Origin: an uncultured Eubacteriales bacterium | GTDB lineage: Bacteria; Bacillota; Clostridia; Oscillospirales; CAG-272 | DNA: 64,000 nucleotides | Reading direction: 5' to 3' | Assembly (NCBI GenBank): GCA_958352145.1 | Contig: CATWNM010000007.1 | Coordinates: 5,865-69,864 of the forward strand | Shown: positions 8,427-38,491 of the stretch, piece by piece | Layout: every line of letters begins with the position of its first letter | How positions within the stretch are numbered: position 1 is the first letter of the stretch | The notes under the pieces: generated by a model | What the model saw: only the letters and a program-made list of their open reading frames with translations | Databases searched by the model: none | What the model was told of the DNA's origin: nothing | Translations under genes and position numbers: made by a program

Positions 8427-8568
8427 ACGTCCTCCGTGTGTATTTGTAATCTGCAACCATCATAGCATACTATGCGCGAATTTGCAATGTAAAATGCGTA
8501 AAATGGCAATTGAAATGTAAATTCGCTTACGATATACTAAAAGTAACAAGGAAAGAGGGGGGAAATTT

Positions 8569-12163: not shown

Positions 12164-12164
12164 A

Positions 12165-12354
12165 TTAAAAGAAGAACCAATGAGAAGTTTTAAGCAAACA
12201 GCCTTGGAGGTGACGGAAACAAAGAAGATAAGCAAAAAAGGTAGCGGTAGCTCTATAACGGGAATTCCTATTTACAGCTTTTCGCAGATTTTTACCGATT
12301 TTTAGAGATTTTGGCACCATAAGGGCACTATTTAGAAAAATTGAGCGGCACTTT
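12165..12354 (+). repeat. Scar homologous to the 3' tail of the right-hand integrase plus its downstream arm region
   Basis: CTCTATAACGGGA, TTTACAGCTTTTC and GGCACCATAAGGGCAC occur in the same order and orientation as 38170-38255. This is a remnant of an earlier element. Confidence 0.6.
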
Positions 12355-12401
12355 GACAAAGTGAAAACCCTTGAAAACGTAGTGCTTTCAAGGGTTTGTG
12401 G
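12355..12401 (+). repeat. Left copy of the island-flanking direct repeat (att-like core with hairpin)
   Basis: GACAAAGTGAAAACCCTTGAAAACgtagtgcTTTCAAGGGTTTGTgg matches 38358-38404 except in the hairpin loop and the last bases. Confidence 0.75.
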
Positions 12402-12713
12402 TATAAGGAATATAGAAAAGATAATTTCGGCTGTTTTGCAAAAAACTTTGAATCTATAGTTTATTATTGAAGTTATATTTGATAAAAATGTGTAATTTAG
12501 ATATAAAGTCTGCTTTGCTGTTTTCGTAAACTGCTTCGTTCTTACACCGATGCTTGTTGCAGAACGAAGTAATTGCTTTGCAATAATTGTATTTTTTTCG
12601 TTTTAGAAAGCACTTCAAAAACAAAACGATTTGGGTTGAAAAATCAAAAGATTTATTATGTAATGGGCTGGTTATTGTTATTACCTCTGAACGAATTATA
12701 TCACAATCAAATT

Positions 12714-13610
12714 TTATATTCCATGCTTTGCAAAGCAAAGTCGCCTTTTCTCATATCTTTCTCCATTATCTTTTCTAATAAAAAACGGTAAAGTAACATC
12801 GGTAATCGGCAGTATGCGGTCTTGCGATTTTGTAGGGGCCATTTCGGTAATTGTGGTCGTGCCGGGTGGAACTTTGAACGGTAATTGCTCAACGACAGCA
12901 AAACGCTTGTTTTTCAAATCAATATTGCTCCAACGCAAGCCGAGAACTTCATTACGCCGTAGTCCGTAAAGACCGCTTAAAACAAATATCATTTCTCACT
13001 CATTACCTGAACCCAATGCCATAAGGTGCTGCATTTGCTCGACCGTATAGGGGGCGGGCGCTTTTGCGTCTTTGCCGAACTTCATTAGTATATCTCTTGT
13101 GGGATTTGTTTCAATATAGTGATATTTCCGTGCCGCTTCAAACGCAACGCTTAATATTCGTTGCGTATAACGGCAAGTGCTGGTTGACAATCCTTTGTCG
13201 GAAAGCCGTTTTAACATATTGTCAATCATCGCCGGCGTCAGCTTTTTCAGAGGAACATTCCCGATATATGGAACAATATGGTTTTTGATGTGGCATTTAT
13301 ATCCCGAAAAGGTGCTTGGTCGTAAATTGGCTTTGCCGTGAATCTCAACCCATTCCTCTAAATATTCCTGTACGGTCTGTTTGGCTTCGACAGCCTTAAT
13401 CGGCTCATAACTCGGATTTGTCAGTTTAACACGCATTTCCGCTTCATGGTCTAACGCTTCTTTCTTTGTCAGAAATCCTCGTTTGCCGTATGTTTTATAT
13501 CCATTAGCCGTTTTATAGCGTATAAACACATCATAAACGGTTCCGGCTCTCGCTGTACTGCCGCCGTCAGCAGTGCGCTTATTTTTTACTTGGCGTGTGG
13601 TAACAGACAT
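12714..13610 (-). pseudogene. int: Tyrosine integrase (Tn916-Int-like), disrupted and 3'-truncated
   Basis: The N-terminal arm-binding and SAM-like domains are collinear with the right-hand integrase. There is an in-frame TGA at 12996-12998 where the paralog has TGG (TEWEM vs GNE*EM). Homology ends after ITDVTLPFF, so the HxxR and Tyr catalytic half is missing. Confidence 0.85.
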
Positions 13611-13643
13611 TTAATCACCTCCTGTCCCCGCTGTGGGACAGGT

Positions 13644-13722
13644 ACAATATCGGTTGTACCAATCCCATATGGCTTTGTCTGCAAGTAAACAGCGATTCCC
13701 GTTTTGTATATACTCAAGCTAT
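13644..13722 (-). pseudogene. xis: Excisionase (Xis) 3' remnant
   Basis: The reverse complement reads LEYIQNGNR..AIWDWY, collinear with the intact xis at 36641-36877. The 5' half is absent. Confidence 0.65.
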
Positions 13723-13838
13723 CATACTTTAGTTCCTAAATATCTCCTTCTTTAAATCCCGGGAGCGGAGGAATAAGCCTCAGGCTTTCATTTTGCAGTC
13801 GAAGTACATTACATCTTCACTTTTCTTGGTTGTATTTC

Positions 13839-14708
13839 TTATGCCTTTCGTTGTGCAAGAATCCAATTCAAAATGTTTTCATCATCGAAAAGAATATTAC
13901 CGCCGCCGTGGTAGTTATAAATGCCACGGCTGTTAAAGTATTCGTTATCGGGGATTTCTACAATCAATCGTTCACTAATTTGTTCATCTGTATATCCCTT
14001 TTCACGGTAAGCCGCTTGCAGACTGCTATAAGCGGATCGTGCTTTTTCAGAACCGTAATACTCATCGTTTTCAGCCATAAAGATATATACGGCTACATCA
14101 TTTTGAACTATTGGCTCATAAGCACCGTCCCATTGAGACGCACCGTGCAGATACGCTGCATACAAATCAGGGCGCATTGATACCGCCTGCGACATTGTTT
14201 CGCCTCCTGCCGAATATCCGGCGGCGTAAACTCTTGCCGGATCGACTGCAAAATTATCTATGAAGTATTTCGTCAGTTCAATCGCTTGTCTTGCAGATGT
14301 TTCGTGCCAATCGGTAAATTGAGCAGAAACCACAATCATATCTTCTGCAAGTTCTGTCCATACCTGAAAGCCACTCCATTTCAAATTATTGCCCGAAGAA
14401 TCTTCGCCAAACCACATCATATCGTAACCCGGCATAGTCATCATCAAGGGATAAGTCTTGCTTTCGTCGTAATCCTCCGGCAAGTAATAGCTATAATGAA
14501 TCTCGCCGTCATTACCGTTCAAAATCTGTTCAGAGAAAATACCGGTTTTTTCGGATAAGTTTTCTGTTTCGCTCCGTGTTTTCGATTCGGCAGCAACAGA
14601 TTCAGGCACCTTATTACTTTCGGAATCATCTATCGGCTGATTTACCGAGCAAGCGGTAATCAAAAGTGAAATTATCAATATGGTAGATAGAACCACTTCC
14701 TTTTTCAC
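13839..14708 (-). CDS. Lipoprotein alpha/beta hydrolase (esterase)
   Basis: 289 aa. Signal peptide plus lipobox (LLITAC). Nucleophile elbow GYSAGG. Confidence 0.75.
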   Translation of the reverse strand: MKKEVVLSTILIISLLITACSVNQPIDDSESNKVPESVAAESKTRSETENLSEKTGIFSEQILNGNDGEIHYSYYLPEDYDESKTYPLMMTMPGYDMMWFGEDSSGNNLKWSGFQVWTELAEDMIVVSAQFTDWHETSARQAIELTKYFIDNFAVDPARVYAAGYSAGGETMSQAVSMRPDLYAAYLHGASQWDGAYEPIVQNDVAVYIFMAENDEYYGSEKARSAYSSLQAAYREKGYTDEQISERLIVEIPDNEYFNSRGIYNYHGGGNILFDDENILNWILAQRKA

Positions 14709-14737
14709 TTATTCCACCTCGCTTTGAAAGACTGTTG

Positions 14738-15577
14738 TTAATGCAGTTTTGTCAGCATTTCCACAACCGACGGATCGTAGTGGGAGAAAAACAGGCTTTC
14801 CTTTTCGTCCAATGCTCGGATTGCGTTCATATCGTTTTCGTCAAGTGCAAAATCAAAGACATTGAGATTTTCCGCCATACGCTCCTTATGGGTGGATTTC
14901 GGGATTACCACAACATCGCTTTGCAGGAGGAAACGGAGAGCAACCTGTGCGGCACTTTTGCCGTGCTTTTTGCCAATCTCATTCAGTACGGGATTGGAAA
15001 AGAAATCCTTTCTGCCCTCGGCGAACGGGCCCCAAGATTCGTGCTGTACGCCGTATTTTTCCATATATTCGTGGGCTGATTTCTGCTGTTGGAAAATATG
15101 CGTTTCCACCTGATTGATCGCAGGTTTTACCTCGACAAAGCTGCACAAATCCACCAATCTGTCTGGATAAAAATTGGAAACACCGATTGCCCGAATCCAG
15201 CCTTCTTTATAGGCTTCTTCCATTGCCCGGTAAGTACCGTAGTAATCATTAAAGGGCTGATGAATCAAAACAAGGTCGATATACTCGGTTTGCAGTTTGC
15301 GTAAGGATTCTTTCAGCGATTCCTTTGCTTTTTCATATCCTCCGTTTGTAATCCAAACCTTTGTGGTAATAAAGAGTTCGTTACGGGAAACGCCGCACTT
15401 GCTGATAGCATTTCCGACCGCATCTTCGTTGCCGTATGCTTGTGCCGTATCAATCGAGCGATAGCCGACGCTGATTGCGTCCAGTACGCAGCGTTCACAT
15501 TCTTCGTTTGACACCTGATATACGCCGTAGCCCAGCTTTGGCATTTTGATTCCGTTATTCAAAGTTACATACTCCAT
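14738..15577 (-). CDS. Aldo/keto reductase (2,5-diketo-D-gluconate reductase-like)
   Basis: 279 aa. MEYVTLNNGIKMPKLGYGVYQV, IDTAQAYGNE and LVLIHQP are AKR hallmarks. Confidence 0.9.
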   Translation of the reverse strand: MEYVTLNNGIKMPKLGYGVYQVSNEECERCVLDAISVGYRSIDTAQAYGNEDAVGNAISKCGVSRNELFITTKVWITNGGYEKAKESLKESLRKLQTEYIDLVLIHQPFNDYYGTYRAMEEAYKEGWIRAIGVSNFYPDRLVDLCSFVEVKPAINQVETHIFQQQKSAHEYMEKYGVQHESWGPFAEGRKDFFSNPVLNEIGKKHGKSAAQVALRFLLQSDVVVIPKSTHKERMAENLNVFDFALDENDMNAIRALDEKESLFFSHYDPSVVEMLTKLH

Positions 15578-15590
15578 AATTGATTTCTCC

Positions 15591-16346
15591 TTATTTTACA
15601 TTTTTATAATCTTCGTTTCTTACAGGCTCACACCATTCGGTATGTGTGTTTTCTCCCGGTACTTCCACCGCAAGATGAGAGAACCAACTATCCGGTGCTG
15701 CACCGTGCCAATGCTTCACGCCTGCCGGAATATTGATAACATCCCCTGCTGTCATACAAATCGGTTTCTTGCCCCATTCTTGATAGAAGCCCCTGCCGGC
15801 AACACAGACCAAAATCTGACCGCCGCCCTGATCGGCGTGGTGGATATGCCAGTTATTTCGGCACCCCGGTTCAAAGGTCACATTGAAAATACCCACCTGT
15901 TCTTGGGACACAGGGGCAAGATAACTTTGCCCCGCAAAATACTGTGCAAAGGCATCGTTCGGCTGCCCGATCGGGAACAGCATAGATTTTTCATAAGCGG
16001 TTTTTTTGTCCGCTTCGTCTGTTTCATCTTTCCAAATATCTTTTGCTAAGCAGAAAGCCGCCCACGCTTTGGGCCAGCCTGCATAAAAGGCTGCGTGCGT
16101 AATAGTTTCGGCGATTTCGCTTCTTGTGATTCCATTCGCTTTTGCCGATTCCAGATGATGAACGAAAGAGGTATCTGTAAGCCCTTGAGAAAGAAGCGCC
16201 ACTACGGTTATCAAAGAGCGTTCTTTCAGAGAGAGTTTGTCCTCTCTGCTCCATACCTGACCGAAAAGCACGTCGTCATTGAGTTCTGCAAATTTAGGCG
16301 CAAATTCTCCGAGGGCGGTTCTTCCCGCCGTTTGCTTTACTGACAT
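15591..16346 (-). CDS. Carboxymuconolactone decarboxylase-family / cupin fusion protein
   Basis: 251 aa. The N-terminal CMD-like half (LFGQVWSREDKLSLKERSLITV) is fused to a C-terminal cupin (WHIHHADQGGGQILVCVAGRG...GVKHWHGA). Confidence 0.75.
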   Translation of the reverse strand: MSVKQTAGRTALGEFAPKFAELNDDVLFGQVWSREDKLSLKERSLITVVALLSQGLTDTSFVHHLESAKANGITRSEIAETITHAAFYAGWPKAWAAFCLAKDIWKDETDEADKKTAYEKSMLFPIGQPNDAFAQYFAGQSYLAPVSQEQVGIFNVTFEPGCRNNWHIHHADQGGGQILVCVAGRGFYQEWGKKPICMTAGDVINIPAGVKHWHGAAPDSWFSHLAVEVPGENTHTEWCEPVRNEDYKNVK

Positions 16347-16380
16347 ACTGTTGCCCTCCTAACATATTGATATATCGTTA

Positions 16381-16830
16381 TCAGAGATTTTCTGATAATT
16401 TATGGGCCTCGGAACGGTTGGTTGCCATACCTGCGTATTTCATTCCGTAAAGTCCTGCAAAGCGTTTCATCGTATATTCTCCGGCGTCCAACATCCATTT
16501 TTCCGGTGCTGCGCCTTGAAAGAGGAAATAGAGCGTTCTGCCAGACAATGAACCGTTTTCTACCAACCCGTAGAAACGATCCAGCATATTTCGTACCGAG
16601 CCGCAGATGTTGTGCCAGTACAGCGGAGAGCCAATAACAATTACCTCTGCCTGTTCCATTTTCGCAATAACCTGACCGAACTGATCGTCCTCGAAATGCT
16701 GCCCGTAACTTCCGATTCTGTAATCTGTCAAATTCTGCGTTTCATATTCTTTTCCTTTCAGAAGCTCTTTTGCAAGGGCGGCGGTATTTCCGCTCTGATT
16801 CGGGCTTCCGTTGATAAATAAGATGTTCAT
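16381..16830 (-). CDS. Flavodoxin-fold NAD(P)H-dependent FMN reductase-like protein
   Basis: 149 aa. MNILFINGSPNQSGNT and IGSPLYWHN are typical of the FMN_red/flavodoxin_2 fold. Confidence 0.7.
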   Translation of the reverse strand: MNILFINGSPNQSGNTAALAKELLKGKEYETQNLTDYRIGSYGQHFEDDQFGQVIAKMEQAEVIVIGSPLYWHNICGSVRNMLDRFYGLVENGSLSGRTLYFLFQGAAPEKWMLDAGEYTMKRFAGLYGMKYAGMATNRSEAHKLSENL

Positions 16831-16851
16831 TTGTTATTCCTCCTATAAAAT

Positions 16852-17870
<1,019 letters not shown>

Positions 17871-18407
17871 CTATACATTTTTGCCCATTTCATAGGCTTC
17901 AGCCATAGCCGGGGTACCCAGTATCGTGCCTTTTTCATAGACGCCTGTGCCGTAAATAACGCCCATTTCTTTTGCACCGTTTACGCAGTCAGCATAGCCG
18001 CGGAAACAGGCAAGTGTGGTTTCCATAGACGATTTATCTTCATCGGCGGCAGTCATAATATAGTAAAACTCTTTGTTTTTCACCTCTAGCCAGCGGGCAA
18101 CCGTCCTGTCGATAACCGCTTTTAACTGTGCGTCAATGGAATAGAAATAAACAGGGCTTGCAAGCACAAGTACATCGGCGTCGATCATTGCCTGCAAAAT
18201 TTCTGCCATATCATCTTTGTAAGCGCACTCGCCGCCGTGTTCACGGCAAAAATAGCAAGCGCGGCAAGGCGTTACTTTTTTGTTTGCAACATTGATTTTG
18301 GTTACATTGTTGCCGGCTTCCTTTGCTCCACGCATAAATTCATCACAGAGTAAATCGGAGTTGCCGCCGCCCCGGGGGCTGCCGGATAAGATAAGTACAT
18401 TTTTCAT
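17871..18407 (-). CDS. Iron-sulfur flavoprotein (Isf)-like flavodoxin-fold protein
   Basis: 178 aa. MKNVLILSGSPRGGGNS plus the compact Cys motif C-x2-C-x2-C-x6-C (PCRACYFCREHGGEC). Confidence 0.7.
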   Translation of the reverse strand: MKNVLILSGSPRGGGNSDLLCDEFMRGAKEAGNNVTKINVANKKVTPCRACYFCREHGGECAYKDDMAEILQAMIDADVLVLASPVYFYSIDAQLKAVIDRTVARWLEVKNKEFYYIMTAADEDKSSMETTLACFRGYADCVNGAKEMGVIYGTGVYEKGTILGTPAMAEAYEMGKNV

Positions 18408-18427
18408 TGTTCAAATTCTCCTTGTTT

Positions 18428-19111
18428 TTAATTTTTATAACCAAGTTCGTCAAGCCACTCGTCAACGGCGCTTTCTGCCTCGGCTACATTGTTGCCCGCA
18501 TAGGTAAAGTAGTTGTCGGCTAATACGGTTGAATCCGGACAAAGTTCCTCCAGAGTAGAAATGCTGCCCGCACCCGACGAGCTGCCGTTATGCGTAAAAA
18601 ACGGAATGATTGTTTTTCCCGACAGGTCATATTCTTCGAGAAAAGACCAAACAGGCATTGGCAGATCGTACCACCAAATCGGGAAGCCAATAAAGATAAC
18701 ATCGTATTCAGCCATAGCCTCTTTATCTATGTGAGAGGAAAGGGGTGGGCGAGTACCGCTGTTAAGTTCGTCTTGCGCCCGATCAAATACATCGTCGCTT
18801 GTATAATTGACTTCGGGCGTAATTCTAAATAATTCACCGCCTGTTTTATCAGAAATCCAGTTCGCAACCTGCTGTGTATTGCCCGACCAAGAGAAATAGG
18901 CGACCAAGATATTAGAATCACCTGCCACGCTTTCTTCGGAGGCGCTGTCAGCGGGATCCTCTGTGTTGTTGTCTGTGACAGCGTTATCATTATTCATAGT
19001 GGCACCGATGTTGTCCGCAGCGTTATTGCTTTGCTGGTTGCAGGCGGACAGAGAGAGAACGCAGCCAACACATAAAACAAGCGAAATCATTGATAATAAA
19101 ATTTTCTTCAT
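18428..19111 (-). CDS. Lipoprotein-anchored flavodoxin-domain protein
   Basis: 227 aa. Signal peptide plus lipobox (LSLSAC), a low-complexity linker, then a flavodoxin domain (ILVAYFSWSGNTQQVA...IGFPIWWYD). Its ATG overlaps the upstream stop (ATGA). Confidence 0.75.
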   Translation of the reverse strand: MKKILLSMISLVLCVGCVLSLSACNQQSNNAADNIGATMNNDNAVTDNNTEDPADSASEESVAGDSNILVAYFSWSGNTQQVANWISDKTGGELFRITPEVNYTSDDVFDRAQDELNSGTRPPLSSHIDKEAMAEYDVIFIGFPIWWYDLPMPVWSFLEEYDLSGKTIIPFFTHNGSSSGAGSISTLEELCPDSTVLADNYFTYAGNNVAEAESAVDEWLDELGYKN

Positions 19112-19794
19112 AGTGCCTCCTTAAATTTTTCCTTTTGATTTTTGTCCAGCCTACTTTTCTTTTGCAACAGTTTCTTACCGTAATAGGCGAAACCTGCAAA
19201 GGTAGAGGACATAGCGATAGTTTCAAAAAAATATATTATTGCTGATTTATCGGTATCAAAAAACTTAAACTCGGTAAGGTAGAACAGTTCCTCGTAAAAG
19301 GCTCTGCCGAAAAATACATAAATGCCGTATGCCGCCAGTAAAACGACAATGATTTGACCTGCCCGCAGAAGTGACCTCCTCTGTTTGAGCTTATTCGCCA
19401 AAGGCGTGAAATGCAATCCCAAATGCAGGTTCATCAGTACAAACGTCCATGCGGTTGCGATAAGGTGAAGCATTCTGCCGAATTTTGCCCCGCCTAAATT
19501 CAGAAAGGCAAAAACTTTTCCCGAAACCAGCACTGAACTTACCATACAGCACAACATAGTGATAAGCAGCGCAATATTGATAATCGTCGATACCGTCCTT
19601 GTCGGTGCGTATTTCCCCTTGAAAAGCGTTTTATACCAACGGAAATTCAGGATATTGTGAGCGATAAACAACACAAATAATGCTATACCGATCCATTCGT
19701 GCAATCCACCCCATAGGTGTTCTTGCATAAGGGCAACAAAGATTAGGTACATAGCAATGTCAATAGTAATTTTAACAACCCGCTTGTATTGCAT
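19108..19794 (-). CDS. His-rich polytopic membrane protein (DUF4405-like, possible b-type cytochrome fold)
   Basis: 228 aa with about six hydrophobic segments. Histidines sit in or next to TM segments (EHLWGGLHEW, IAHNIL, MLHLIA, LHLGLH). The family assignment is from memory and needs an HMM check. Confidence 0.5.
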   Translation of the reverse strand: MQYKRVVKITIDIAMYLIFVALMQEHLWGGLHEWIGIALFVLFIAHNILNFRWYKTLFKGKYAPTRTVSTIINIALLITMLCCMVSSVLVSGKVFAFLNLGGAKFGRMLHLIATAWTFVLMNLHLGLHFTPLANKLKQRRSLLRAGQIIVVLLAAYGIYVFFGRAFYEELFYLTEFKFFDTDKSAIIYFFETIAMSSTFAGFAYYGKKLLQKKSRLDKNQKEKFKEAL

Positions 19795-19798
19795 TTTG

Positions 19799-20845
19799 TC
19801 ACCTCCATATTAGGCGCAGCCCATTGTAAAAGTACAGCATAGCGTAGTAGCCGGAATGATCGCCGTCAGATTCAAGGTAATATAAATTTCCCTCTGCTTC
19901 ATTATCGGCAAAACGGAAAATACCGCTGTCGCTTGCCGCCATAGTGTCAATTCCACGCTTAAAACCTGAATAAGCGAAATCGTTTGTCCCCGAAGCGGCA
20001 AAAATGAAGAAATCGTTCCAATCGTGCCCCGAACTTTGGACAATACTCTCGTAGGTTTCTACGCTTGAAGCAGGGCCTCCGCTTGACGGCATAAAATAGC
20101 GGAAGTAATCAAGGCAATATTCAAAAGTACGCCAAGTTGCCATAGAACCCATTGAAAATCCGCAGAAAGCCCGATAATCACGAGAAGCGGCAATCGCTTC
20201 GGGAGTGATGTCTTCGGCATAAGTGCTGTATTTCCCCTCCACTGCCGGAATAAGGTCGTTTATTAACTCATTGTGATAATTGTCGGTCAACCGGAGAGCA
20301 AGACCGTAGTCGCCGCTGTCCTCCGGGCTTGTATTGTTGTAGGTAGGGCAAACAACAATCATCGGCTGGATTTCGCCGTTTGCAATGCCGTGATCGAGAA
20401 TGTGTTTCATTCTTAGCGGCTCATCAGGGCTGCCAAGATAGGCATATTCGTTACTCCAACCGCCGTGCATAAGATAGAACACGGGATATTTCTTACTTTC
20501 GTCATAGCCATACGGCAGATAAACAACAGCGTGCTTCCTAAGTTTTTGGCTTTTTTCCTCGTAGGAAAAGGATTCGTAAGAATCGTAGTAAAGGTCTTGC
20601 AAAGTGCCTTGCTGCTGGGCCTCGCTCAAATAGCTGTCGGGAATTGGGGTGAGCGAAACAGGAAAACGGTTTACGGTTTCGTCTGTATCAGACGGCGTAC
20701 TATTGTATTCAGCCCCCAAACTGCCGTTTTCTGCCCCTATATCCTCGCCGCCTATCGAGGACGAAGCACACGCCGAAAGAATGAGCGATAAGGCGATGAA
20801 CATAGTCAAAATTACAATACATTTTTTCATAGCATTATTTTTCAA
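19799..20845 (-). CDS. Lipoprotein esterase (putative esterase / feruloyl- or enterochelin-esterase-like alpha/beta hydrolase)
   Basis: 348 aa. Signal peptide plus lipobox (LILSAC). YPVFYLMHGG and the nucleophile elbow GFSMGS. Confidence 0.75.
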   Translation of the reverse strand: MKNNAMKKCIVILTMFIALSLILSACASSSIGGEDIGAENGSLGAEYNSTPSDTDETVNRFPVSLTPIPDSYLSEAQQQGTLQDLYYDSYESFSYEEKSQKLRKHAVVYLPYGYDESKKYPVFYLMHGGWSNEYAYLGSPDEPLRMKHILDHGIANGEIQPMIVVCPTYNNTSPEDSGDYGLALRLTDNYHNELINDLIPAVEGKYSTYAEDITPEAIAASRDYRAFCGFSMGSMATWRTFEYCLDYFRYFMPSSGGPASSVETYESIVQSSGHDWNDFFIFAASGTNDFAYSGFKRGIDTMAASDSGIFRFADNEAEGNLYYLESDGDHSGYYAMLYFYNGLRLIWR

Positions 20846-22037
20846 GGCTTTCTACCCAAGCGATTACATCGCTTTCGTTGGTGCCGGAACGGAAACGCTC
20901 GCCCGTCTGCCAATCGCCTGTGCCTGCCATTTCTGCAAGCAGTTTGCCGCTTTCGCCAAGTCCTGAACTTGAAGATGTTGCAAAGGGAATAACGGTCTTT
21001 CCCGTAAAATCGTTTGCTTTAATGAATCCGTCAACAGGCCAAGCGGCAATGCCCCACCAAATCGGATAGCCGATGAAAACAGTGTCGTATTCGCCCCAAT
21101 TATCGACTGTGCTTTTTACAAGCGGTACATCACGCTCATTGGGATTATCGTGTTCACGCACAACACGGCTGTTATCGTCTGTCCAGTTAAGATCGGCGTC
21201 GCTGTACGGATTGGCGGGTTCAAGTTTAAATAGATCGCCGTTTGTTGCGGCTGCAATCGTTTTTGCCACATTCTCTGTGTTGCCTGTTGCGGAGTAATAG
21301 ACAACTAATGTTTTTCCTGCCTCATCGGTGGAATTTGGCGCTTCGACAACAGAAGATTCCGGCTGTGCCGCAGTTTGTTCAAAGCCAAGAGATTTCACCC
21401 AATCAATAATTTCCTGCTCTGCGTCTTGAATATCGTTACGGGAAATGGATTTACCCTCTAATACCTTGGCGTTTGGCTCCAGTTCTTTGATTGTGGAGAT
21501 TGTACCCGAAAAACCGCTGCCGCCGTGTGTGTTAAAGGGAATAATGGTCTTGCCGGAAAAATCGTATTCGTCAAAGAAAGAATAAAGGATCATCGGCATA
21601 TCGCCCCACCAATTCGGATAACCGACAAAGATATTTTCATAGGTGTCAAAATTTTCGATGGTATCTTTGATTTTCGGTCTTGCATTATTGTTCTGTTCTT
21701 CTTTTGCAAGGTCAACCAGCGTATCGTGGTCGGTAGGATAGGGCGTTTCCGGCTCAATGCGGAAAATGTCTGCATCAACGGTTTCTTCAATAACATAAGC
21801 CATATACTGCGTATTACCGAGCGTTTCACCGCCTATTACAACAGTACTGTCATCAACATTATCAGGCATGGAAAAATACACGACAAGATTTTTTTCGTTT
21901 GTATTATGCGGCGTGAATGCGCTCCCATTATTTTGCGACGGTGTATTCGTATCGCCCTGCTGATTACTGCAAGCGGCAAAAGCGAATATAAGAATAAGGC
22001 TCATAAAAACAGCGATTATTTTTTTCATAACGAACAT
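20835..22037 (-). CDS. Lipoprotein with two tandem flavodoxin domains
   Basis: 400 aa. Lipobox FAFAAC. Domain 1 has NLVVYFSMPDN...VGYPNWWGD and domain 2 has TLVVYYSATGNTENVA...IGYPIWWG. The stop overlaps the next gene by 11 nt. Confidence 0.75.
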   Translation of the reverse strand: MFVMKKIIAVFMSLILIFAFAACSNQQGDTNTPSQNNGSAFTPHNTNEKNLVVYFSMPDNVDDSTVVIGGETLGNTQYMAYVIEETVDADIFRIEPETPYPTDHDTLVDLAKEEQNNNARPKIKDTIENFDTYENIFVGYPNWWGDMPMILYSFFDEYDFSGKTIIPFNTHGGSGFSGTISTIKELEPNAKVLEGKSISRNDIQDAEQEIIDWVKSLGFEQTAAQPESSVVEAPNSTDEAGKTLVVYYSATGNTENVAKTIAAATNGDLFKLEPANPYSDADLNWTDDNSRVVREHDNPNERDVPLVKSTVDNWGEYDTVFIGYPIWWGIAAWPVDGFIKANDFTGKTVIPFATSSSSGLGESGKLLAEMAGTGDWQTGERFRSGTNESDVIAWVESLEK

Positions 22038-22054
22038 TCCTTTCTATGATGTTT

Positions 22055-23224
22055 TTAATAACATTCCTTGAAAATTTCCAAGATTTCTTCGTGCGACATT
22101 TGTTTGTAACTGCCGGGGACGATAGCTACGGTATCAGCGATTTCCTTTAAGTTTGTTTGCTCGGTTACACCGAGTTCCCGCAAGGTCGTGGGCAAACCGA
22201 TTTCTTTGATAAAATCTGCCAACGCTTCAACGCCTACAAGGGCGGTTTCTTCCTCTGTTTTGCCGTCTGCCGAAACGCCCCAAACCTCGGTTGCGAATCG
22301 TTTGAATTTCGGCAAGCCGTATTTATAAATATGGCGGTAATAAACAGGGTGCAGAACCGCAAGTCCCTCGCCGTGGTTGCAATTGGTGTATGCGCCAAGC
22401 TGGTGTTCCATTTGGTGACATTCAAAATCTGTGCGTTTGCCGAGTTTGATAATTCGGTTTTCTGCCATTGTAGCCGCCCACATCAGATTGCTTCGTGCGG
22501 TATAATCCTTCGGATTCTGAATAGCAGTACGGAGGTTGCGGATTACGCTTCGCATAAGCGCCTCGGAAATATCGTCCGATACATTGTCCTCGTTTGGCTC
22601 GCTGAAATAAATCTCCATAATGTGCGAAAGAATATCAAAACTGCCGGACGCCATTTGTTTTTTTGGCACGCTGTACGTATAGGTCGGGTCGAGCAGGGCA
22701 AATTGGGGGTTGCATTTTGGATAATCTCTGCCTGTTTTGATTTTCAAGTCCTCGTTGGTAATAACTGCGCCGCCATTGCACTCGCTGCCTGTGCCTGCCA
22801 CGGTGACAATTACGCCGAGGGGTAACGGCTCGAAATCAAAGATACCCGGTCTCGTCCAAAAATCCGCCCATACATCGCCTTCATAGCAGGCGGCAATAGA
22901 AATCGCTTTACAGCAGTCCATAACAGAGCCGCCGCCGATTCCTAAAAGCAGGCTAACTCCGTTTTCCCTTGCGAGTTTTGCACCCTCCAACAACCTTGCG
23001 TAGGTGGGGTTTGCCATAATTCCGCTAAACTCCACCACGGTTTTACCTGCGGCTTTCAAGATTCCCATTACCTCGTCATAGATACCGTTTTTCTTGATAG
23101 AGCCGCCGCCATAACAAAGCATAACCGTATCGCCGTAGGCTTTTGTCAGGCATGACAAATATTCCTTTACGCAGCCTTTGCCAAAATAAACCTTTGTAGA
23201 GTTTTCAAAAATAAAGTTGTTCAT
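22055..23224 (-). CDS. Iron-containing alcohol dehydrogenase (butanol dehydrogenase/YqhD-like)
   Basis: 389 aa. GGGSVMDCCKAI signature and conserved His cluster (HQMEHQLG...HGEGLA). Confidence 0.9.
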   Translation of the reverse strand: MNNFIFENSTKVYFGKGCVKEYLSCLTKAYGDTVMLCYGGGSIKKNGIYDEVMGILKAAGKTVVEFSGIMANPTYARLLEGAKLARENGVSLLLGIGGGSVMDCCKAISIAACYEGDVWADFWTRPGIFDFEPLPLGVIVTVAGTGSECNGGAVITNEDLKIKTGRDYPKCNPQFALLDPTYTYSVPKKQMASGSFDILSHIMEIYFSEPNEDNVSDDISEALMRSVIRNLRTAIQNPKDYTARSNLMWAATMAENRIIKLGKRTDFECHQMEHQLGAYTNCNHGEGLAVLHPVYYRHIYKYGLPKFKRFATEVWGVSADGKTEEETALVGVEALADFIKEIGLPTTLRELGVTEQTNLKEIADTVAIVPGSYKQMSHEEILEIFKECY

Positions 23225-23272
23225 TGTATCAATCCTTTCTTTGATTATTTGTGTTGATAATTTCTTCGAGCG

Positions 23273-24292
23273 TTACATTTGCGTTTCCCAAAAGTCCATA
23301 GCGTCATTTATCCACCCCACGGCAATCGTTCCCGTGCCGAGACCGAAGCCGTGTCTCAGGCCTTTGTAATGGTGAAATTCGGTCGGGATTCCAAGTGCGT
23401 TCAAATGGTCAAGCCGAGCCTCCATTGTACGCCAGTTTGCAATACCGTCGTTTTCGCCCACACAAGCATAGGTCGGCGGATCGTTCTCGCTATATTCGTT
23501 GTAACCTGTGTACTGCATAATCACTGCCCCGGCCTGCGGCAAATCTTTTTCTCCGAACGCTGCCGTGCCATAAGAACCGAGCCACGCTGCCATTCTTCCT
23601 CCTGCCGAACCGCCCCAGAGGGAATAACAATCCGTGTTTACCTCTAATTCATCAGCATTTTCAAAAATAAAGCTGATTGCTCTTGCCAAGTCCTCGCAGG
23701 CGGTCTGTGCGCCGGGGCGATAAATCAAAGCAAATGCATTGTAGCCCATTTTTGATAATTCCAAAGCATGGGGAAAACTATCGTGCATTGCGCCAACATA
23801 AGCAAATCCGCCGCCTACGTTGCATACCGCAAACCGTTCACCGGGATTTCCCTTGAAGAAAAACAAGCCTGTATCTTCCTTTGTGGGATCAGCCGCCTTT
23901 TCTTCATCGGTATAAATGTCATAGAAAATCACATGGCCGTTTTCAGCGTGGTTTTTCATATAGTTCGTAATCTCAACGGTCTTATCAGGGTCAATATTGT
24001 TGTACTAAATAAGTCCGAGTTCCCCCAATGTATCGCCGCTGTAATATCCGCTGTTTACAGGGAATATTAGTCTGCCGTAATCCCCAAAGACGGGGTTGTT
24101 CATCACATCGGATATTTTGGTGTTTACCGTATATCGTTCAGTATTGTTCTGATTCGCTTGCACAGATGTCTCTACTCCTTTGGAATCCGTGTCTGTATCG
24201 GTGTTATTCATTTTTATACAACACCCTGCAAGGAAAACGGCTATACAAATTAAAATTGCGAGGAAAGCGTTCTTTCTCAAAGCCGTCACCAA
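23273..24292 (-). pseudogene. Lipoprotein alpha/beta hydrolase interrupted by an in-frame TAG
   Basis: ORFs 24005-24292 (signal peptide plus lipobox FLAGC) and 23273-23959 share a frame. They are separated only by a TAG at 24005-24007 (GELGLI*YNNIDPDK). Catalytic elbow WGGSAGG. Confidence 0.75.
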
Positions 24293-24374
24293 CCTTTTTG
24301 TTTACAGTATAAACAAAACGAGACCTCCGCAGAAGTCTCGTTTTGTTTATCAGTTTATACCCAAAGGTTATATC

Positions 24375-25319
24375 TTATCTAATTTCCTTTATACAACGAT
24401 TTCCCTGCCCGCAGGGGTCTTTCACCGCCGCCTGCGCTGCGCTAAGAAAGCGCTTAACTAATTCTGTCGGTTGCGGTGAGTGCAATATGCCGTAGGGAAT
24501 ACAATGCTCCCATTCCACAGGAATAACTTTTAACAACGGATGTACATTTGCCCAGCCGGGAATAGCCATCAGGATATCGTTTCCATTTTCGCAGCGATTA
24601 AATATGTTTACATCATAAAAATCAAAATCTATTACATTGATTTGCGGATGGTTTTTCCAAATATCATCGCGCAGTCCGTCAACATAACGGCTCCAGCCAC
24701 GGTGCATTAAAAGCAAATTTTCACCATATAAATCCTCTATCTTTAATTTATCCTTTGAGGCAAGTCGATGATGAAAAGATACTGCACAGCAAAGCGGCTC
24801 ACAGGACAGCCTCAATCCGTCGCAATGACGAAGATGTAGCATTGTTTCATCAAATATACCGCCGATTACATCAATGTTTGTACCGAGGTTAGCTAAAATC
24901 TCCCGTGCATTTTCAGGTGTATTTTCAAACGGAACAATCTGAAATTTCATATCAGGGCAATGCTCATGCATTTTTGGCCATAACTGCATAAGCAGTTGCG
25001 CCGGCGTGGTAGCCGATGTACCGATTCGGATAATATTCGTATCCTCCTGCATTGCGTTTTTCGCCCGTGTGACGGAATCTTTACAGTATTGAATGATGTA
25101 TTTTGAATCCTGATACAGAGAGCGACCGGCTTTTGTCAAAAGTAAGCCTCTGTGAGTACGCTCAAAGAGTTTCACCTCTAACGAATCTTCCAACAAATTG
25201 ATTTGTTTTATGACAGCAGTAGGCGTAATGTAAGATTCTTCTGCGGCCTTATTAAAACTGCCGGCGTCTGCTACTCTTAAAAATGTTTCAAGTTGAGGGT
25301 TATACATCCATTTCACCAC
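24375..25319 (-). CDS. LysR family transcriptional regulator
   Basis: 314 aa. N-terminal LysR HTH (LETFLRVADAGSFNKAAEESYITPTAVIKQINLLE) plus a substrate-binding domain. First large gene of the minus-strand cluster. Confidence 0.9.
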   Translation of the reverse strand: MVKWMYNPQLETFLRVADAGSFNKAAEESYITPTAVIKQINLLEDSLEVKLFERTHRGLLLTKAGRSLYQDSKYIIQYCKDSVTRAKNAMQEDTNIIRIGTSATTPAQLLMQLWPKMHEHCPDMKFQIVPFENTPENAREILANLGTNIDVIGGIFDETMLHLRHCDGLRLSCEPLCCAVSFHHRLASKDKLKIEDLYGENLLLMHRGWSRYVDGLRDDIWKNHPQINVIDFDFYDVNIFNRCENGNDILMAIPGWANVHPLLKVIPVEWEHCIPYGILHSPQPTELVKRFLSAAQAAVKDPCGQGNRCIKEIR

Positions 25320-25509
25320 CTTTACTCCAACGCTTTTTTCGTAAATCTGTCGGTTTTTCCGCCGTTTTGGGAATCATCCAAGAACGCCCGAATTTTTGTG
25401 TTCCGTCTATTCTATTTTCTTCACATAATTTTTGAATACGCCGTTCAGAGATTTCCCATTTCTGTGCCGCCTCTTTGACTGATATGTAATCCATTTCCAT
25501 CCTCCCCAA
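25300..25509 (-). CDS. Small helix-turn-helix DNA-binding protein (excisionase/MerR-like HTH)
   Basis: 69 aa. DYISVKEAAQKWEISERRIQKLCEENRI is a typical HTH_17-like motif. Overlaps the LysR start by 20 nt. Confidence 0.65.
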   Translation of the reverse strand: MGRMEMDYISVKEAAQKWEISERRIQKLCEENRIDGTQKFGRSWMIPKTAEKPTDLRKKRWSKGGEMDV

Positions 25510-26109
25510 AGTACGCTTAACCGAACAATAACATAACTATATTTTATTCGTATATGTGTATAGTGTCAAGAGAAATATTTGAACTGGTTTTAGGGACATT
25601 TAAATTGGTGAGCGTAGACTCTCCGAATTAGGTAGCAAACAAATTTTGGGGAGATTTTGTTTTACAGTGATAAGGAAGTATTTACAACAACTTATCATCG
25701 ACGCTGACAAACAGGATTGCAAACAGAAACAGAGAGTTAATCACTTCCAAAAATGGTCGGCTCTCTGTTTTTCTATCTCCGCATTGTTACGCAGTAGAAC
25801 CCCATTTTTAAGGGAAAAGGTATAAATCCCTTACCCTTGATATTTTCGTGTCTGTAAGCCGTTTAAATCAAGGTTGTTTTGCCCTCTACTGCGTAACATT
25901 ACTATGGTAATTCATGTAGCTGTTTACACAAAACAAAACCTATGTGTACTTCCGGCTTTCGGTATTGGATTACCCTACATTGGATTTTCCAACGTTGGAT
26001 AAACCTATGTTGGAAAATCCAACGCAATTAAATAAAGATATACAAAGTAAAGATTAAATAATTACTGATTCAATCAATTACCCATTCCTTTCCGTCCCCT
26101 CAATTCTAC

Positions 26110-26525
26110 CTATTCTTTTCGTAACTGTTTTAGCGCTGCTAATTTCCAGTAATTCGTTGTACTTCTGTTTCGCCCATACTCTTTTCCAATTTGAGCATCG
26201 GTATAACCGAAGAAAAAGTACAGAAGTAAAACATTACGTCTTTGTTCGTTCAATTTCAATAGTGCTTCGGCTAACTGTTTACTTGCAACAACAATCTCTT
26301 GTCCTTTCACAACAAAAATAGTCGGTTGGTCATACTACTCGAAATAAGTATCCGTTGTGAACGCTTCAAACGACGTTTCGGATTTAAGTATTCCAGCGAT
26401 ATTTCCCGTTTCTGCTTCCGTCCGAAATCACGATAGGCAGACATTGCCGCATTGTAGAGAGCAACTCTGCAAAAAGCGGCGAAAGTGTATTTGATATGTT
26501 CCTTGTATTCTTCCGAATAAATCAT
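26110..26525 (-). pseudogene. Tn916 ORF7-like sigma-70 family protein, frameshift plus in-frame TAG
   Basis: The N-terminus MIYSEEYKEHIKYTFAAFCRVALYNA...EISLEYL and the C-terminal region-4 HTH (RRNVLLLYFFFGYTDAQIGKEYGRNRSTTNYW) are in different frames. The C-terminal frame contains TYFE*YDQ (TAG). Confidence 0.75.
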
Positions 26526-26889
26526 CCAACTCCCCCCTTTCCTCCCGGCAAGGGGGTGATAAAACAAATACCCATACAGTGGAAAACTGTACGGGCGTTT
26601 GAACAATGTGAACTGATGATGTTATCTATATGACCTGTGTGTTCACTATCATAGACAGGAATATACCTCAATGAAACAACGTTTTTTTGACAACAGGCTA
26701 TAGGGTGATTGAATAGCAAACATGGCGATGCCTCCCGATACTGCCGGACTTTTACTTTACGCAAAAATACGGCGACTTTGAATAACAATCAAAACCGCCG
26801 CTGGGCTTTTCTATTCTGTTTAGGCGTGATTATACAGCCGCCGAAACAACGTTTTTTTCATTATCCGTTGGGCGGAATGTATCAATAAG

Positions 26890-27753
26890 TTAGAGTGCTT
26901 CGTTTGGGTATTGGCTTAGAAATACCTCGTTTGCCTTTTCTAATTTGTCGTGATATTTACGATAAGACCTACTCAGTTTTTTCATTGCTGGGATAAAGAT
27001 AGTATCATATCCACTTTCGCTGTTGAGTTTCCTTAGATATTCCTGAAGTCTATACGCCGGGGAAGCCTTAAATTCATCGGATTGTTTTAGCTGCATATAC
27101 CGTTCAAGAATTTCTTTGTTCTCTGCTATATATTTTTCAGTATCAGAAATTGCGTAATTCATATTTGCAAACACCTTCTCGACAAAGGCTTCGTCAAAAT
27201 CTTTTGTGATTTCATCAAGATATTGCTGAAGATCGGGTGGAAGTGCAAAACTTACATTATCCAAAAATTCAATGACAGTTTCAAACGCCTCTTGTTGTTC
27301 ATCACTAACAATAGGCTCATTGAGATACCGGGCAAAATGCAGACTGATATATTTACCATAGTAGCCCGGAAAGACATTCAACAGTCTTTGCAAAATCGTC
27401 TGACTTTTTTCGAGGACTTCAAGTTGAGCGTTTGTATATTCCCAATCTTGTTTCTCCGCAAGCTGTTGAACTAATGCTTGCTTTGTTTCTTCCGCTTTGA
27501 TTTCAATTCTTTTTCTTTCGGAAACCTTGTACAATGCCGTTTGCCCTCCTCCGTCCAAAACTTCTTTTATGCTTTGAACCGATAAGCCTAATCTTCGGAG
27601 TATAGCAATCTTTTTTAATCTTTCAATATCAGCAGCAGAAAAATTACGATACCCATTTTCTAATGTTTTCGGCTGAACTAACTTTTGCTCAGCATAGTAT
27701 TCAATCGACTTTTTTGTTAATCTACACTTTTTGCAAACCTCGTTAATCAACAT
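26890..27753 (-). CDS. MerR family transcriptional regulator with a long C-terminal effector domain
   Basis: 287 aa. MerR HTH (LTKKSIEYYAEQKLVQPKTLENGYRNFSAADIERLKKI). Confidence 0.85.
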   Translation of the reverse strand: MLINEVCKKCRLTKKSIEYYAEQKLVQPKTLENGYRNFSAADIERLKKIAILRRLGLSVQSIKEVLDGGGQTALYKVSERKRIEIKAEETKQALVQQLAEKQDWEYTNAQLEVLEKSQTILQRLLNVFPGYYGKYISLHFARYLNEPIVSDEQQEAFETVIEFLDNVSFALPPDLQQYLDEITKDFDEAFVEKVFANMNYAISDTEKYIAENKEILERYMQLKQSDEFKASPAYRLQEYLRKLNSESGYDTIFIPAMKKLSRSYRKYHDKLEKANEVFLSQYPNEAL

Positions 27754-36880: not shown

Positions 36881-38183
36881 ATGGCGGTATTATTAAGACA
36901 AGTATAAAATAAACGTGATAGTAACGGTGTTCTGACGGGTAAGCCAGGCACCGTTTACGACGTTAATATCAAATATAATTCGCCCGAAGGCAAAATGACC
37001 TATTCCCAAAAGGGCTTTGCAACCAAAAAGGAAGCTACACAGCACGAAGCTGAAATGAAAACCAAGCTCGCAAATCCCGTCTATACGCCCGTTGCTTCCT
37101 CACAAGGCAAGCAGACGGTCAAGGAGTATATGGAGGAATGGGTAAGAGATACACGGAAAAGCAAACTTGCGCCCAAGCACGTTTGCAAGCTACAAGGGCT
37201 ATATAAAAAACCACATTGTGCCGAACATCGGACACGTTCAACTCAATCAGCTTTCGCCCGCTATGCTTGACAATATGTTTCAAAAAATGTTCGATAGCGG
37301 ATTGTCAAACAGTAGCGTCAGATATGCTCAAAGAATTATGAGCGTCGCATAGGAACACGCAAGGAAGTATCACTACATAGAACACAATGCCGCCCGTGAT
37401 GTTATCACGAAATTTGGCAAGCAAGGCAAGACACCCGACCCGTACACCATAGGACAAATGCAAGATTTTATGGGCAAGGTTATCGGTACGGAATGGGAAA
37501 TGCTCGTTATGCTTGCGGGTATGTATGGCTTGCGTATGAGTGAAATTCTCGGCTTGCGTTGGCAAAATGTAGATTTGGAAAAAGGCACGTTCGGCGTTGT
37601 CGAGCAATTACCGTTTAATCTCCCCGCAGGGACAAAAGAGATTGCGGAAATGGCACCGACAAAATCCAACGATAGAATATTGCCGATCACCGATCTGACG
37701 CGCCCATATTTTGAGCAAGCGAAAAATCTGCAAGAAAGGAGGAAGGAGCTTACAGCCGCCGCAGGGACACCGTACTATGACAATGACCTTGTGATCTCAA
37801 AGCCCGACGGCACACCTTATCGGCGCGACGTTGTTTCAAACAATTTCGGTCAGCTTGTACGGCACCTTGAAATGCCGCATATTCGTTTTCACGATTTGCG
37901 GCATACGGCGGCAACCAATATGCACCAACTCACGGGCGACTTTTATACTGTCGGTGAGATTTTGGGGCATACGTTGAAAGGTATCGGAATGTCGCTTGGT
38001 ATCTCAACCAACCTTGAAGCAGTAACGGCACAGTACGTTGACGTGCGTCTTGAACGTAAAAAATCCGTCCTTGACGTTTACCACAAGGGCACTACACCCG
38101 CCGAAAGGCGACGGAGAAAAGAAGCAAGGCGACAGCGGCAAGGAAGAAAAGCCAAAGAAAAAAGTAGTGATATAGAGCTATAA
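36881..38183 (+). pseudogene. int: Tyrosine integrase (Tn916-Int-like) with three lesions
   Basis: Collinear with the left integrase and retains RxxxR..HDLRHT..GH..Y-region motifs. It has a TAA at about 36905 (RQV*NKR vs RQVKNKR), a frameshift near 37165 and a TAG at 37350-37352 (SVA*EHA vs SVAFEAA). Confidence 0.85.
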
Positions 38184-38238
38184 CGGGAACATCTCTTTAC
38201 AGCTTTTCACTACTTTTTATAGGTTTTTAAGACATTCG

Positions 38239-38352
38239 GGCACCATAAGGGCACCACAGTATTCATTTTTGATGAATAAACTGAATAGAGCAAAACACCG
38301 AGGTCACCACAAATTAGGGCACCAATGGCACCATTCACAAAAAGCGGGCACC
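38239..38352 (+). repeat. Cluster of GGCACC(A) direct repeats (candidate integrase arm-type sites)
   Basis: Exact GGCACC at 38239, 38250, 38318, 38327 and 38347, plus GTCACC at 38303, between the int stop and the core repeat. Confidence 0.5.
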
Positions 38353-38357
38353 ACCAA

Positions 38358-38404
38358 GACAAAGTGAAAACCCTTGAAAACATAATGTTTTCAAGGGTTT
38401 GTTG
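38358..38404 (+). repeat. Right copy of the island-flanking direct repeat, overlapping the tRNA-Ser 3' end and its terminator hairpin
   Basis: GACAAAGTGAAAACCCTTGAAAACataatgtTTTCAAGGGTTTGTtg. The hairpin AAACCCTTGAAAAC/GTTTTCAAGGGTTT lies directly 3' of the tRNA on the minus strand. Confidence 0.75.
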
Positions 38405-38491
38405 GCGGAGAGGGCGGGATTCGAACCCGCGTGCGATTGCTCGCAAACTGATTTCGAGTCAGCCCCGTTATGACCACTTCGATACCTCTCC
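38403..38491 (-). tRNA. tRNA-Ser: tRNA-Ser (anticodon CGA), class II with long variable arm, CCA encoded
   Basis: The reverse complement is GGAGAGGTATCGAAGTGGTCATAACGGGGCTGACTCGAAATCAGTTTGCGAGCAATCGCACGCGGGTTCGAATCCCGCCCTCTCCGCCA. It has a 7-bp acceptor stem, a T-arm GCGGG-TTCGAAT-CCCGC, an anticodon loop CT-CGA-AA and a variable arm of about 17 nt. Confidence 0.88.

Follow-up and report, generated by a model that had tools for sequence, protein, structure and literature searches.

Clusters that combine apbE with a DUF4405 gene often also encode a flavinylated Flavodoxin_4 protein and a flavin transporter (Huang et al. 2024, mSystems, PMC11334425). Flavinylation was shown experimentally, and a [S/T]GA[S/T]-like site is located in the beta1-alpha1 insertion of those flavodoxins (PMC11334425). 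In the same work an Oscillospiraceae DUF4405 protein was purified and its heme-b spectra were shown; it has six transmembrane (TM) helices and four central histidines, and the histidine arrangement of the family resembles that of MsrQ-like and PepSY-like cytochromes (PMC11334425). A kinship of DUF4405 with cytochrome b had been predicted earlier (PMC5898192). The present analysis concerns a gene cluster at positions 13839-25509 of a 64-kb stretch of contig CATWNM010000007.1 from an uncultured Eubacteriales bacterium, the whole stretch being referred to as the window. The cluster is an ApbE-less, motif-less, LysR-headed and island-borne version of the module formed by DUF4405 and extracytosolic Flavodoxin_4. 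With a probability of about 0.6, its core is a trans-membrane electron module consisting of a DUF4405 di-heme cytochrome b and of lipid-anchored Flavodoxin_4 proteins holding their FMN non-covalently. Gene calls, leaders and overlaps were read from the open reading frames (ORFs) of the window and their translations, and families were assigned by Pfam scan.

An earlier interpretation made without database searches (the sequence-only reading) had proposed a trans-membrane conduit to lipid-anchored FMN proteins, possibly linked to secreted esterases, and had stated that no characterised system of this composition was known. The core of the proposal stands, as domains, histidines, lipoboxes and synteny all agree with it; the novelty is justified in part, since the pairing of a heme-b DUF4405 protein with an extracytosolic Flavodoxin_4 has already been published (PMC11334425), and the esterase link is weak. 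Searching the literature for the complete combination of genes yielded no paper, and a broader search returned nothing beyond PMC11334425.

The membrane protein of the core scores above the PF14358 gathering threshold (Table 1) and displays the six helices and the four conserved central histidines of the DUF4405 family. Across 19 homologs, with identities down to 38%, residues H32, H46, H110 and H124 do not vary, and H128 is nearly invariant. The histidines are paired with a 14-residue spacing on each of helices 2 and 4, which is the classical spacing for two stacked b hemes. According to the positive-inside rule, H32 and H110 are predicted to be near the outer face of the membrane and H46 and H124 near the inner face. 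The AlphaFold2 model (mean pLDDT 83) contains long helices at residues 2-22, 31-49, 64-90, 103-127, 140-163 and 185-227, and some homologs also match PF01292, of the cytochrome-b561 type. The term 'His-rich' used in the sequence-only reading was overstated for a protein with 6 histidines in 228 residues, but four of these are the invariant residues of the TM helices. The protein is thus no member of a transporter family devoid of conserved ligands, an outcome which that reading had wished to see checked.

The proposed partners of this protein are two flavodoxin-fold lipoproteins in which PF12682 covers three domains in total, as initially proposed. In the 400-aa protein, NCBIfam assigns PRK06934 to residues 45-218 and PRK07116 to residues 241-399. 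The second domain matches, over its entire length, the Flavodoxin_4-family PDB entries 4ICI, 4J8P and 3KLB (E 5.5e-37 to 4.4e-29) and has a short canonical P-loop, SATGNT. The 227-aa protein aligns with 3KLB over the whole domain (E 5.9e-24) and its P-loop, SWSGNT, is likewise short and canonical; the first 4 nt of its gene lie within the end of the DUF4405 gene. Neither of these two domains contains a beta1-alpha1 insertion. The P-loop, P-x-W and SGK motifs are retained in the flavodoxin domains of the window, and 3KLB, from Bacteroides fragilis, holds non-covalent FMN (PMC11334425). Five products of the cluster, both flavodoxins included, display the pattern of signal peptidase II lipoproteins, i.e. 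a basic region, a hydrophobic core and a lipobox [LVI][ASTVI][GAS]C: a K/R-containing N-terminus is followed by a hydrophobic stretch of 12-16 residues and by LITAC, LSAC, LSAC, FAAC or LAGC. No twin-arginine motif is present in these five leaders. After the lipobox, most of the five carry a polar low-complexity stretch rich in Ser, Asn, Gly, Asp and Thr. The lipoboxes listed in the sequence-only reading (ITAC, LSAC, LSAC, FAAC and LAGC) are all confirmed at the level of the pattern, including FAAC and LSAC on the flavodoxins whose export signals were to be verified, and no hydrophobic leader is found in the translations of the remaining products that it had described as leaderless. As no sign of covalent attachment is seen in the window version, its FMN is probably held non-covalently.

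Conservation of the pairing was addressed by a scan of one genome per species, in which at least 551 genomes contain a relative of the DUF4405 protein. The best 80 loci (37-82% identity) were analysed; they belong mostly to Clostridia, with a few Erysipelotrichaceae and Mollicutes, a Paenibacillus and one Muribaculaceae bin. A Flavodoxin_4 gene is located at most 6 kb from the DUF4405 gene in 73 of the 80 loci, and in 63 it is the immediate neighbour on the same strand, so that the synteny beyond this genome called for by the sequence-only reading is indeed observed. Flavodoxin_4 is immediately upstream of DUF4405 in 49 loci and downstream in 16, and the gap is at most 30 nt in 50 of these 65 adjacent pairs. 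A lipobox or TM anchor was detected in 98 of the 139 Flavodoxin_4 ORFs, and a lipobox pattern in 87, by a crude leader detector that undercounts, having missed leaders such as LTLAAC and LSLTAC, several ORFs being moreover truncated. The colinear cluster of 10-13 genes is found in three other species (L017, L018 and L019), where DUF4405 is 77-82% identical and none of the window's island genes is shared. At least 23 metagenome contigs encode the exact DUF4405 protein, and the chromosomal flank is the same in all of them. On two contigs, a 452-aa ORF (P0129) reads through from DUF4405 into the flavodoxin lipoprotein, which may reflect natural fusion of the genes or loss of a stop codon.

The conserved core is therefore DUF4405 with an exported Flavodoxin_4, and the accompanying genes vary by locus. 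Within 6 kb of DUF4405, a LysR, MerR or TetR regulator is found in 48 of the 80 loci (LysR in 30) and flavin reductases of cytosolic type (FMN_red, Flavin_Reduct, Flavodoxin_5-Fer4) in 44 (FMN_red in 34). Aldo/keto reductases (AKRs) follow with 39 loci, CMD or cupin proteins with 32, the mostly exported cyclophilin-like PF18050 with 22, DUF362 with 16 (10 of the 16 ORFs having a lipobox), RibD_C with 13 and Fe-ADH with 12. Alpha/beta hydrolases of any kind, mostly lipoproteins, accompany the core in 18 of the 80 loci, mostly the closest relatives of the window, which leaves the proposed link to secreted esterases weak.

Some relatives display unusual architectures. An apparent internal-deletion chimera of the DUF4405 and flavodoxin genes was noted (P0099). 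Exported Flavodoxin_4 proteins fused to FGE-sulfatase-type or cyclophilin-like (PF18050) domains are encoded in L013 (7470-8909), L054 (8524-9972 and 6774-7781) and L082 (7177-9225). AKRs with a lipobox or N-terminal anchor adjoin the DUF4405/flavodoxin pair in L011 (5985-7139) and L013 (10545-11507); these enzymes are predicted to be extracellular, and NAD(P)H is not expected there.

A number of points weigh against the proposed electron module. Many Clostridia make neither heme nor quinones. Foldseek comparison of the DUF4405 model with the PDB gave no match at E <= 0.001, and a profile search of PDB sequences recovered no solved DUF4405 relative; as a result, the cytochrome assignment draws on Pfam, on conservation and on one paper. 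Heme b binding is extrapolated to the window protein from the family member studied in PMC11334425, as is FMN binding to the window flavodoxins from their relatives, and the export signals are read from patterns. The module would moreover require a Sec-exported flavodoxin to load non-covalent FMN and to keep it outside a Gram-positive-type cell, a difficulty for this reading. Being the nearest to the window, the 80 loci do not constitute a random sample of the family. Finally, the two pseudogenes of the cluster and the replacement of its upstream half by recombinase genes in some strains suggest relaxed selection on parts of it.

Further objections concern covalent flavin and lead to an explanation in which the window encodes the very system of Huang et al. 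2024, with ApbE located elsewhere in the genome and flavinylation occurring at a non-canonical site. In the window itself, a phmmer search with the ApbE of L082 against all ORFs of at least 60 aa gave no hit at E <= 10, and PF02424 was not found in the Pfam scans of window ORFs. These 64 kb are nevertheless a part of the genome, ApbE could sit beyond them, and it is common in Rnf-bearing Clostridia. The ApbE-linked loci of our scan, which serve in the comparisons as stand-ins for the published DUF4405 proteins and flavinylated flavodoxins, amount to 6 of the 80 within 10 kb (L054, L055, L070, L075, L082 and L092), or 5 within 6 kb; no apbE is found within 10 kb in the other 74, and the DUF4405 proteins of the six are 37-41% identical to that of the window. 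The motif [ST]GA[ST] is absent from all the cluster proteins, the three flavodoxin domains included. Domain 1 of the 400-aa protein does contain a 16-residue beta1-alpha1 insert, MPDNVDDSTVVIGGETL, free of the flavinylation motif. This domain is 51-52% identical to the DTV[AS]GAS domains of L055 and L084 and retains a Ser aligned with their putative flavinylated Ser, but exactly four residues, TV[AS]G, are missing from it. Inserts of the same type (MPDNVD.S..V / VPD..DNSYVE) occur in 17 loci, none with ApbE nearby, whereas motif-like inserts (DTV[AS]GASR, VDASTSAS, EGNASAS) are found predominantly in the ApbE loci. In a late Gly/Ser-rich loop, SGAS is present in orthologs of the 227-aa protein and SGAG in the window; the resemblance is regarded as probably coincidental because this loop differs from the phosphate-binding beta1-alpha1 loop that holds the published flavinylated insertion (PMC11334425). 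Taken together, these observations make an ApbE-dependent version improbable.

It could also be that there is no trans-membrane coupling at all, the island having collected independent, co-regulated enzymes for the detoxification of electrophiles, quinones and aldehydes, among which DUF4405 and the flavodoxins would act separately. Such a collection would be compatible with the island location, the pseudogenes and the strain-level replacement of half the cluster, with the resemblance of the Fe-ADH and AKR to the aldehyde reductases YqhD and DkgA, and with the fact that every companion family except Flavodoxin_4 occurs in at most half of the 80 loci. The same-strand adjacency of DUF4405 and Flavodoxin_4 is however far above what a loosely co-regulated set should show, the read-through ORF P0129 joins the same two genes, and an exported flavodoxin would lack an obvious source of electrons outside the cell unless a membrane conduit supplied them. 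Uncoupled enzymes are accordingly judged unlikely. Lastly, the lipoproteins might capture or scavenge flavins as binding proteins, DUF4405 having an unrelated role in the membrane. FMN is tightly bound by the Flavodoxin_4 fold, flavoproteins exported without covalent attachment would depend on flavin from outside, and free flavins are present in the gut; yet no flavin transporter of the ECF/RibU type was found either in the cluster or in the neighbour families that recur, the conserved partner is of cytochrome type with four invariant histidines as heme ligands, and the fusions of relatives to FGE-sulfatase and cyclophilin-like domains fit an electron-donor module better. A scavenging role is thus regarded as very improbable.

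The trans-membrane electron module preferred here can be briefly outlined as follows. Reducing equivalents would come from two cytoplasmic flavoproteins, the Isf-like FMN_red of 178 aa and the FMN_red of 149 aa, as candidate donors. Electrons would then pass from the inner heme (His46/His124) to the outer heme (His32/His110) and on to the FMN of the surface flavodoxins, with three FMN domains in total. From there they could reach an extracellular acceptor such as quinones, free flavins or iron, or an exported partner enzyme; an inward flow is also conceivable. The variable co-regulated set, made up of the YqhD-like Fe-ADH, the DkgA-like AKR, the CMD-cupin fusion and the three lipoprotein alpha/beta hydrolases, would hydrolyze esters outside the cell and reduce reactive carbonyls or quinones inside it. 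Donor, acceptor, direction of flow and the occupancy by heme and FMN are all inferred for the window protein set.

A wider proposition is possible, though doubtful at present: most modules of DUF4405 and exported Flavodoxin_4 in gut Clostridia, that of the window included, might be ApbE-free, non-covalent heme-to-flavin trans-membrane reductases, present in at least 551 species genomes and switched on by sensors of the LysR or MerR type, which would reduce diet-derived extracellular electrophiles (such as quinones or hydroxycinnamates freed by the lipoprotein esterases encoded alongside) or power exported partner enzymes. If true, this would constitute a new route of extracellular detoxification or respiration and would run counter to the view that extracytosolic flavoproteins need covalent attachment in order to retain their flavin. 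The pairing had previously been described in the context of apbE clusters only; in the closest 80 loci it is near-universal, ApbE and the flavinylation motif being the exception, and it is usually accompanied by sensors (LysR, MerR), by reductases dependent on NAD(P)H and by exported enzymes. Should surface flavodoxins work without covalent flavin, it becomes testable how a monoderm anaerobe loads and retains FMN outside its membrane, and which compounds are reduced at the surface of abundant gut Clostridia. For such experiments the window provides a compact and well-conserved set, comprising DUF4405, three flavodoxin domains and an Isf-like donor candidate.

The cluster consists of 14 co-directional minus-strand genes, two of them pseudogenes, with intergenic gaps of -20 to 148 nt (Table 1). 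Thirteen genes had been counted initially; every family then forecast was recovered by the Pfam scan, including DUF4405 for the membrane protein. The HTH_17 gene at the head of the cluster overlaps the LysR start by 20 nt and also precedes LysR in L019, another species, which belongs to the Acutalibacteraceae. The LysR product possesses both the N-terminal HTH_1 and the LysR_substrate domains that define this class. The promoter match upstream of the pair is the best on the minus strand within 12000-28500, as a consensus match only, and the total number of sigma-70-like sites in the region is not above shuffle expectation. The hairpin following LysR (RNA fold -28.1 kcal/mol, z = -8.7; none of 200 shuffles as stable) looks like a terminator or attenuator. 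Since about 15-25 nt are left between the hairpin and the start codon of the first structural gene, no separate promoter fits there; together with the promoter match upstream of HTH_17, the hairpin suggests read-through control.

Table 1. Features of the cluster and of its island, in window coordinates.
Feature	Position	Strand	Evidence or remark
Sigma-70-like promoter match TTGACA-17-TAAAAT	25541..25569	-	11/12 hexamer matches; upstream of HTH_17/LysR pair
HTH_17 DNA-binding protein, 69 aa	25300..25509	-	PF12728, 30.7 bits
LysR-type transcriptional regulator, 314 aa	24375..25319	-	HTH_1 70 bits, LysR_substrate 40.8 bits
Strong hairpin, near-perfect 19-bp arms, 4-nt loop	24308..24349	-	Between LysR stop and first structural gene
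BD-FAE lipoprotein alpha/beta hydrolase pseudogene, lipobox LAGC	23273..24292	-	BD-FAE and Abhydrolase_3 on C-terminal 228 aa
Cytoplasmic Fe-ADH / aldehyde reductase, YqhD-like, 389 aa	22055..23224	-	Fe-ADH and ADH_Fe_C; leaderless
Lipoprotein with two Flavodoxin_4 domains, 400 aa, lipobox FAAC	20835..22037	-	PF12682, 229 bits, 2 stretches
Lipoprotein esterase, lipobox LSAC	19799..20845	-	PF00756 (Esterase), 40.7 bits
DUF4405 six-helix membrane protein, 228 aa, predicted di-heme cytochrome b	19108..19794	-	PF14358, 43.1 bits (cut-off 26.7)
Flavodoxin_4 lipoprotein, 227 aa, lipobox LSAC	18428..19111	-	PF12682, 103.6 bits
Cytoplasmic FMN_red flavoprotein, Isf-like, 178 aa	17871..18407	-	FMN_red, 77.6 bits
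Aldo/keto reductase pseudogene, two frameshifts	about 16852..17846	-	Aldo_ket_red
Cytoplasmic FMN_red flavoprotein, 149 aa	16381..16830	-	FMN_red, 61 bits
Carboxymuconolactone-decarboxylase (CMD) and cupin fusion, 251 aa	15591..16346	-	CMD 73.3 bits, Cupin_2 32.2 bits
Cytoplasmic aldo/keto reductase, DkgA-like, 279 aa	14738..15577	-	Aldo_ket_red, 179 bits
Lipoprotein alpha/beta hydrolase, Peptidase_S9-like, lipobox ITAC	13839..14708	-	Peptidase_S9, 36.1 bits
Broken tyrosine integrase, N-terminal 204 aa and C-terminal 92-aa fragment	12714..13610	-	Arm-DNA-bind_4, Phage_int_SAM_3, Phage_int_M on N-terminal piece
Left imperfect direct repeat	12248..12399	.	Families D2-D4, 77-87% identical to 38173-38402
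Truncated integrase	37458..38183		Near right repeat
Right direct repeat (38173-38402) abutting tRNA-Ser(CGA) (38403-38491)	38173..38491	.	Bounds island

Isf is defined by an FMN_red/flavodoxin-like fold with a compact C-x2-C-x2-C-x4-7-C motif. The 178-aa FMN_red, whose gene starts 20 nt after the flavodoxin gene, combines this fold with the cysteine motif C-x2-C-x2-C-x6-C (CRACYFCREHGGEC) and belongs to this class at the sequence level. Its residues 4-101, the region of the cysteine motif included, resemble PDB 7D38 (E 4.2e-11), the 310-aa gut flavone reductase FLR (PMC7862272). Assignment as a flavone reductase was rejected, as the N-terminal half alone aligns and full-length similarity is absent. 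The Fe-ADH has PRK15138 alcohol dehydrogenase as best NCBIfam match (249 bits, under the 645-bit cut-off), and the 279-aa AKR reaches 258 bits with the DkgA model, under the cut-off of 425 bits. The other AKR gene, already described as broken, contains two frameshifts relative to the intact 335-aa ortholog of L017, the tblastn match with this ortholog being spread over three reading frames; the ten metagenome copies all have the same break.

The interruption of the BD-FAE hydrolase gene is of another nature. Alignment with the intact 335-aa allele of L004 reveals a single G->A change that converts TGG into a TAG nonsense codon at 24005-24007. Among metagenome copies of the same strain background, the gene is intact in L003-L005 (335 aa) and split in L001, L006 and L009, so that the interruption is a strain polymorphism. 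A frameshift or sequencing error was rejected as an explanation because one and the same nonsense change is common to several independent metagenome contigs. The PF00756 esterase has a weak match, at 44.5 bits and thus far under the cut-off, to the feruloyl-esterase portion of a model for xylanase/feruloyl esterase, and the esterases in general seem to bear a weak resemblance to families of the feruloyl-esterase type. Esterases, Fe-ADH, AKR and LysR together suggest that the cluster responds to esters, carbonyls or quinones derived from the diet.

The cluster is carried by a 26-kb genomic island at a tRNA-Ser gene. The host is an uncultured gut Clostridia bacterium, the best named relatives of its TypA being from 'Clostridia bacterium' at 92% identity. 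The island segment, bounded by the two imperfect direct repeats, has a low GC content (0.38-0.47, vs 0.50-0.60 in the flanks). Integrase remnants are found near both ends, and the Phage_integrase match on the 92-aa fragment scores under its cut-off. Other island genes encode MerR, sigma-70 region-4 fragments, MarR, a cytidylate-kinase-like protein, MatE and two ABC exporters. In two of the metagenome contigs, L002 and L008 (at about 3740-8488 of the locus), three successive genes for tyrosine recombinases, along with DUF6262 and a gene for a PemK toxin, take the place of everything between LysR and the double flavodoxin, these two included; the segment with esterase, DUF4405 and flavodoxin persists there without the regulator.

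Elsewhere in the window, a 1011-aa protein with both RHS repeats and a VanY D-Ala-D-Ala carboxypeptidase domain is encoded at 4341-7376, and three consecutive paralogous M42 glutamyl-aminopeptidase genes are located at 45370-48474. A sulfatase gene followed by a radical-SAM/SPASM gene at 60704-63413 shows the gene order of sulfatases and their anaerobic maturases. GC is also low (0.385-0.40) in a second patch at about 55000-58000, which contains a small sigma-70 region-4/HTH gene (56567-57214) between AzlC and a cation-efflux gene and may be another insertion.

Among described systems, detoxification regulons such as YqhC-yqhD-dkgA of E. coli and MhqR/YodB of B. subtilis share with the cluster a dedicated regulator associated with NAD(P)H-dependent Fe-ADH and AKR enzymes, flavin reductases and a carboxylesterase, but are not known to comprise a membrane cytochrome or exported flavodoxins. 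The Fe-ADH and AKR of the window are moreover no orthologs of YqhD and DkgA, given their scores far under the equivalog cut-offs. In E. coli, electrons pass from the cytosolic flavin reductase Fre to the di-heme b membrane protein MsrQ and on to the extracytoplasmic redox protein MsrP. The same electron-path logic is proposed for the window, where however the membrane protein has no Pfam MsrQ match, the partner is a flavodoxin whereas MsrP is a molybdoenzyme, and the donor is a candidate. The flavodoxins of known structure 3KLB, 4ICI and 4J8P have the same short S-x-[ST]-G-x-T P-loop as domain 2 and the 227-aa protein; the crystallised chains are single domains of 159-171 aa. In the window proteins the fold is accompanied by a lipoprotein signal and a long low-complexity tether, and one of the two contains a second domain.

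The extracellular electron transfer system of Listeria (Ndh2, EetA/B, PplA, FmnB, DmkA/B) is likewise found in a Gram-positive organism and feeds an FMN surface lipoprotein across the membrane. Its route is the quinone-dependent EetA/B one, whereas the window would use a heme protein as conduit. FMN_bind, ApbE/FmnB, Ndh2 and EetA/B are absent from the Pfam hits of the 14 cluster genes, in agreement with the distinction drawn by the sequence-only reading between this cluster and the PplA/Eet machinery.

The closest counterparts are the clusters of Huang et al. 2024. In both cases PF14358 stands beside an extracytosolic PF12682, the membrane protein has six TM helices and four central histidines, the hosts are Firmicutes or Clostridia and electron transfer across the cytoplasmic membrane is presumed. 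The window differs from these clusters in having no apbE, no [S/T]GA[S/T] motif and no flavin transporter gene, and in that its core is embedded among LysR, AKRs, FMN_red proteins, a CMD-cupin fusion, an Fe-ADH and lipoprotein esterases.

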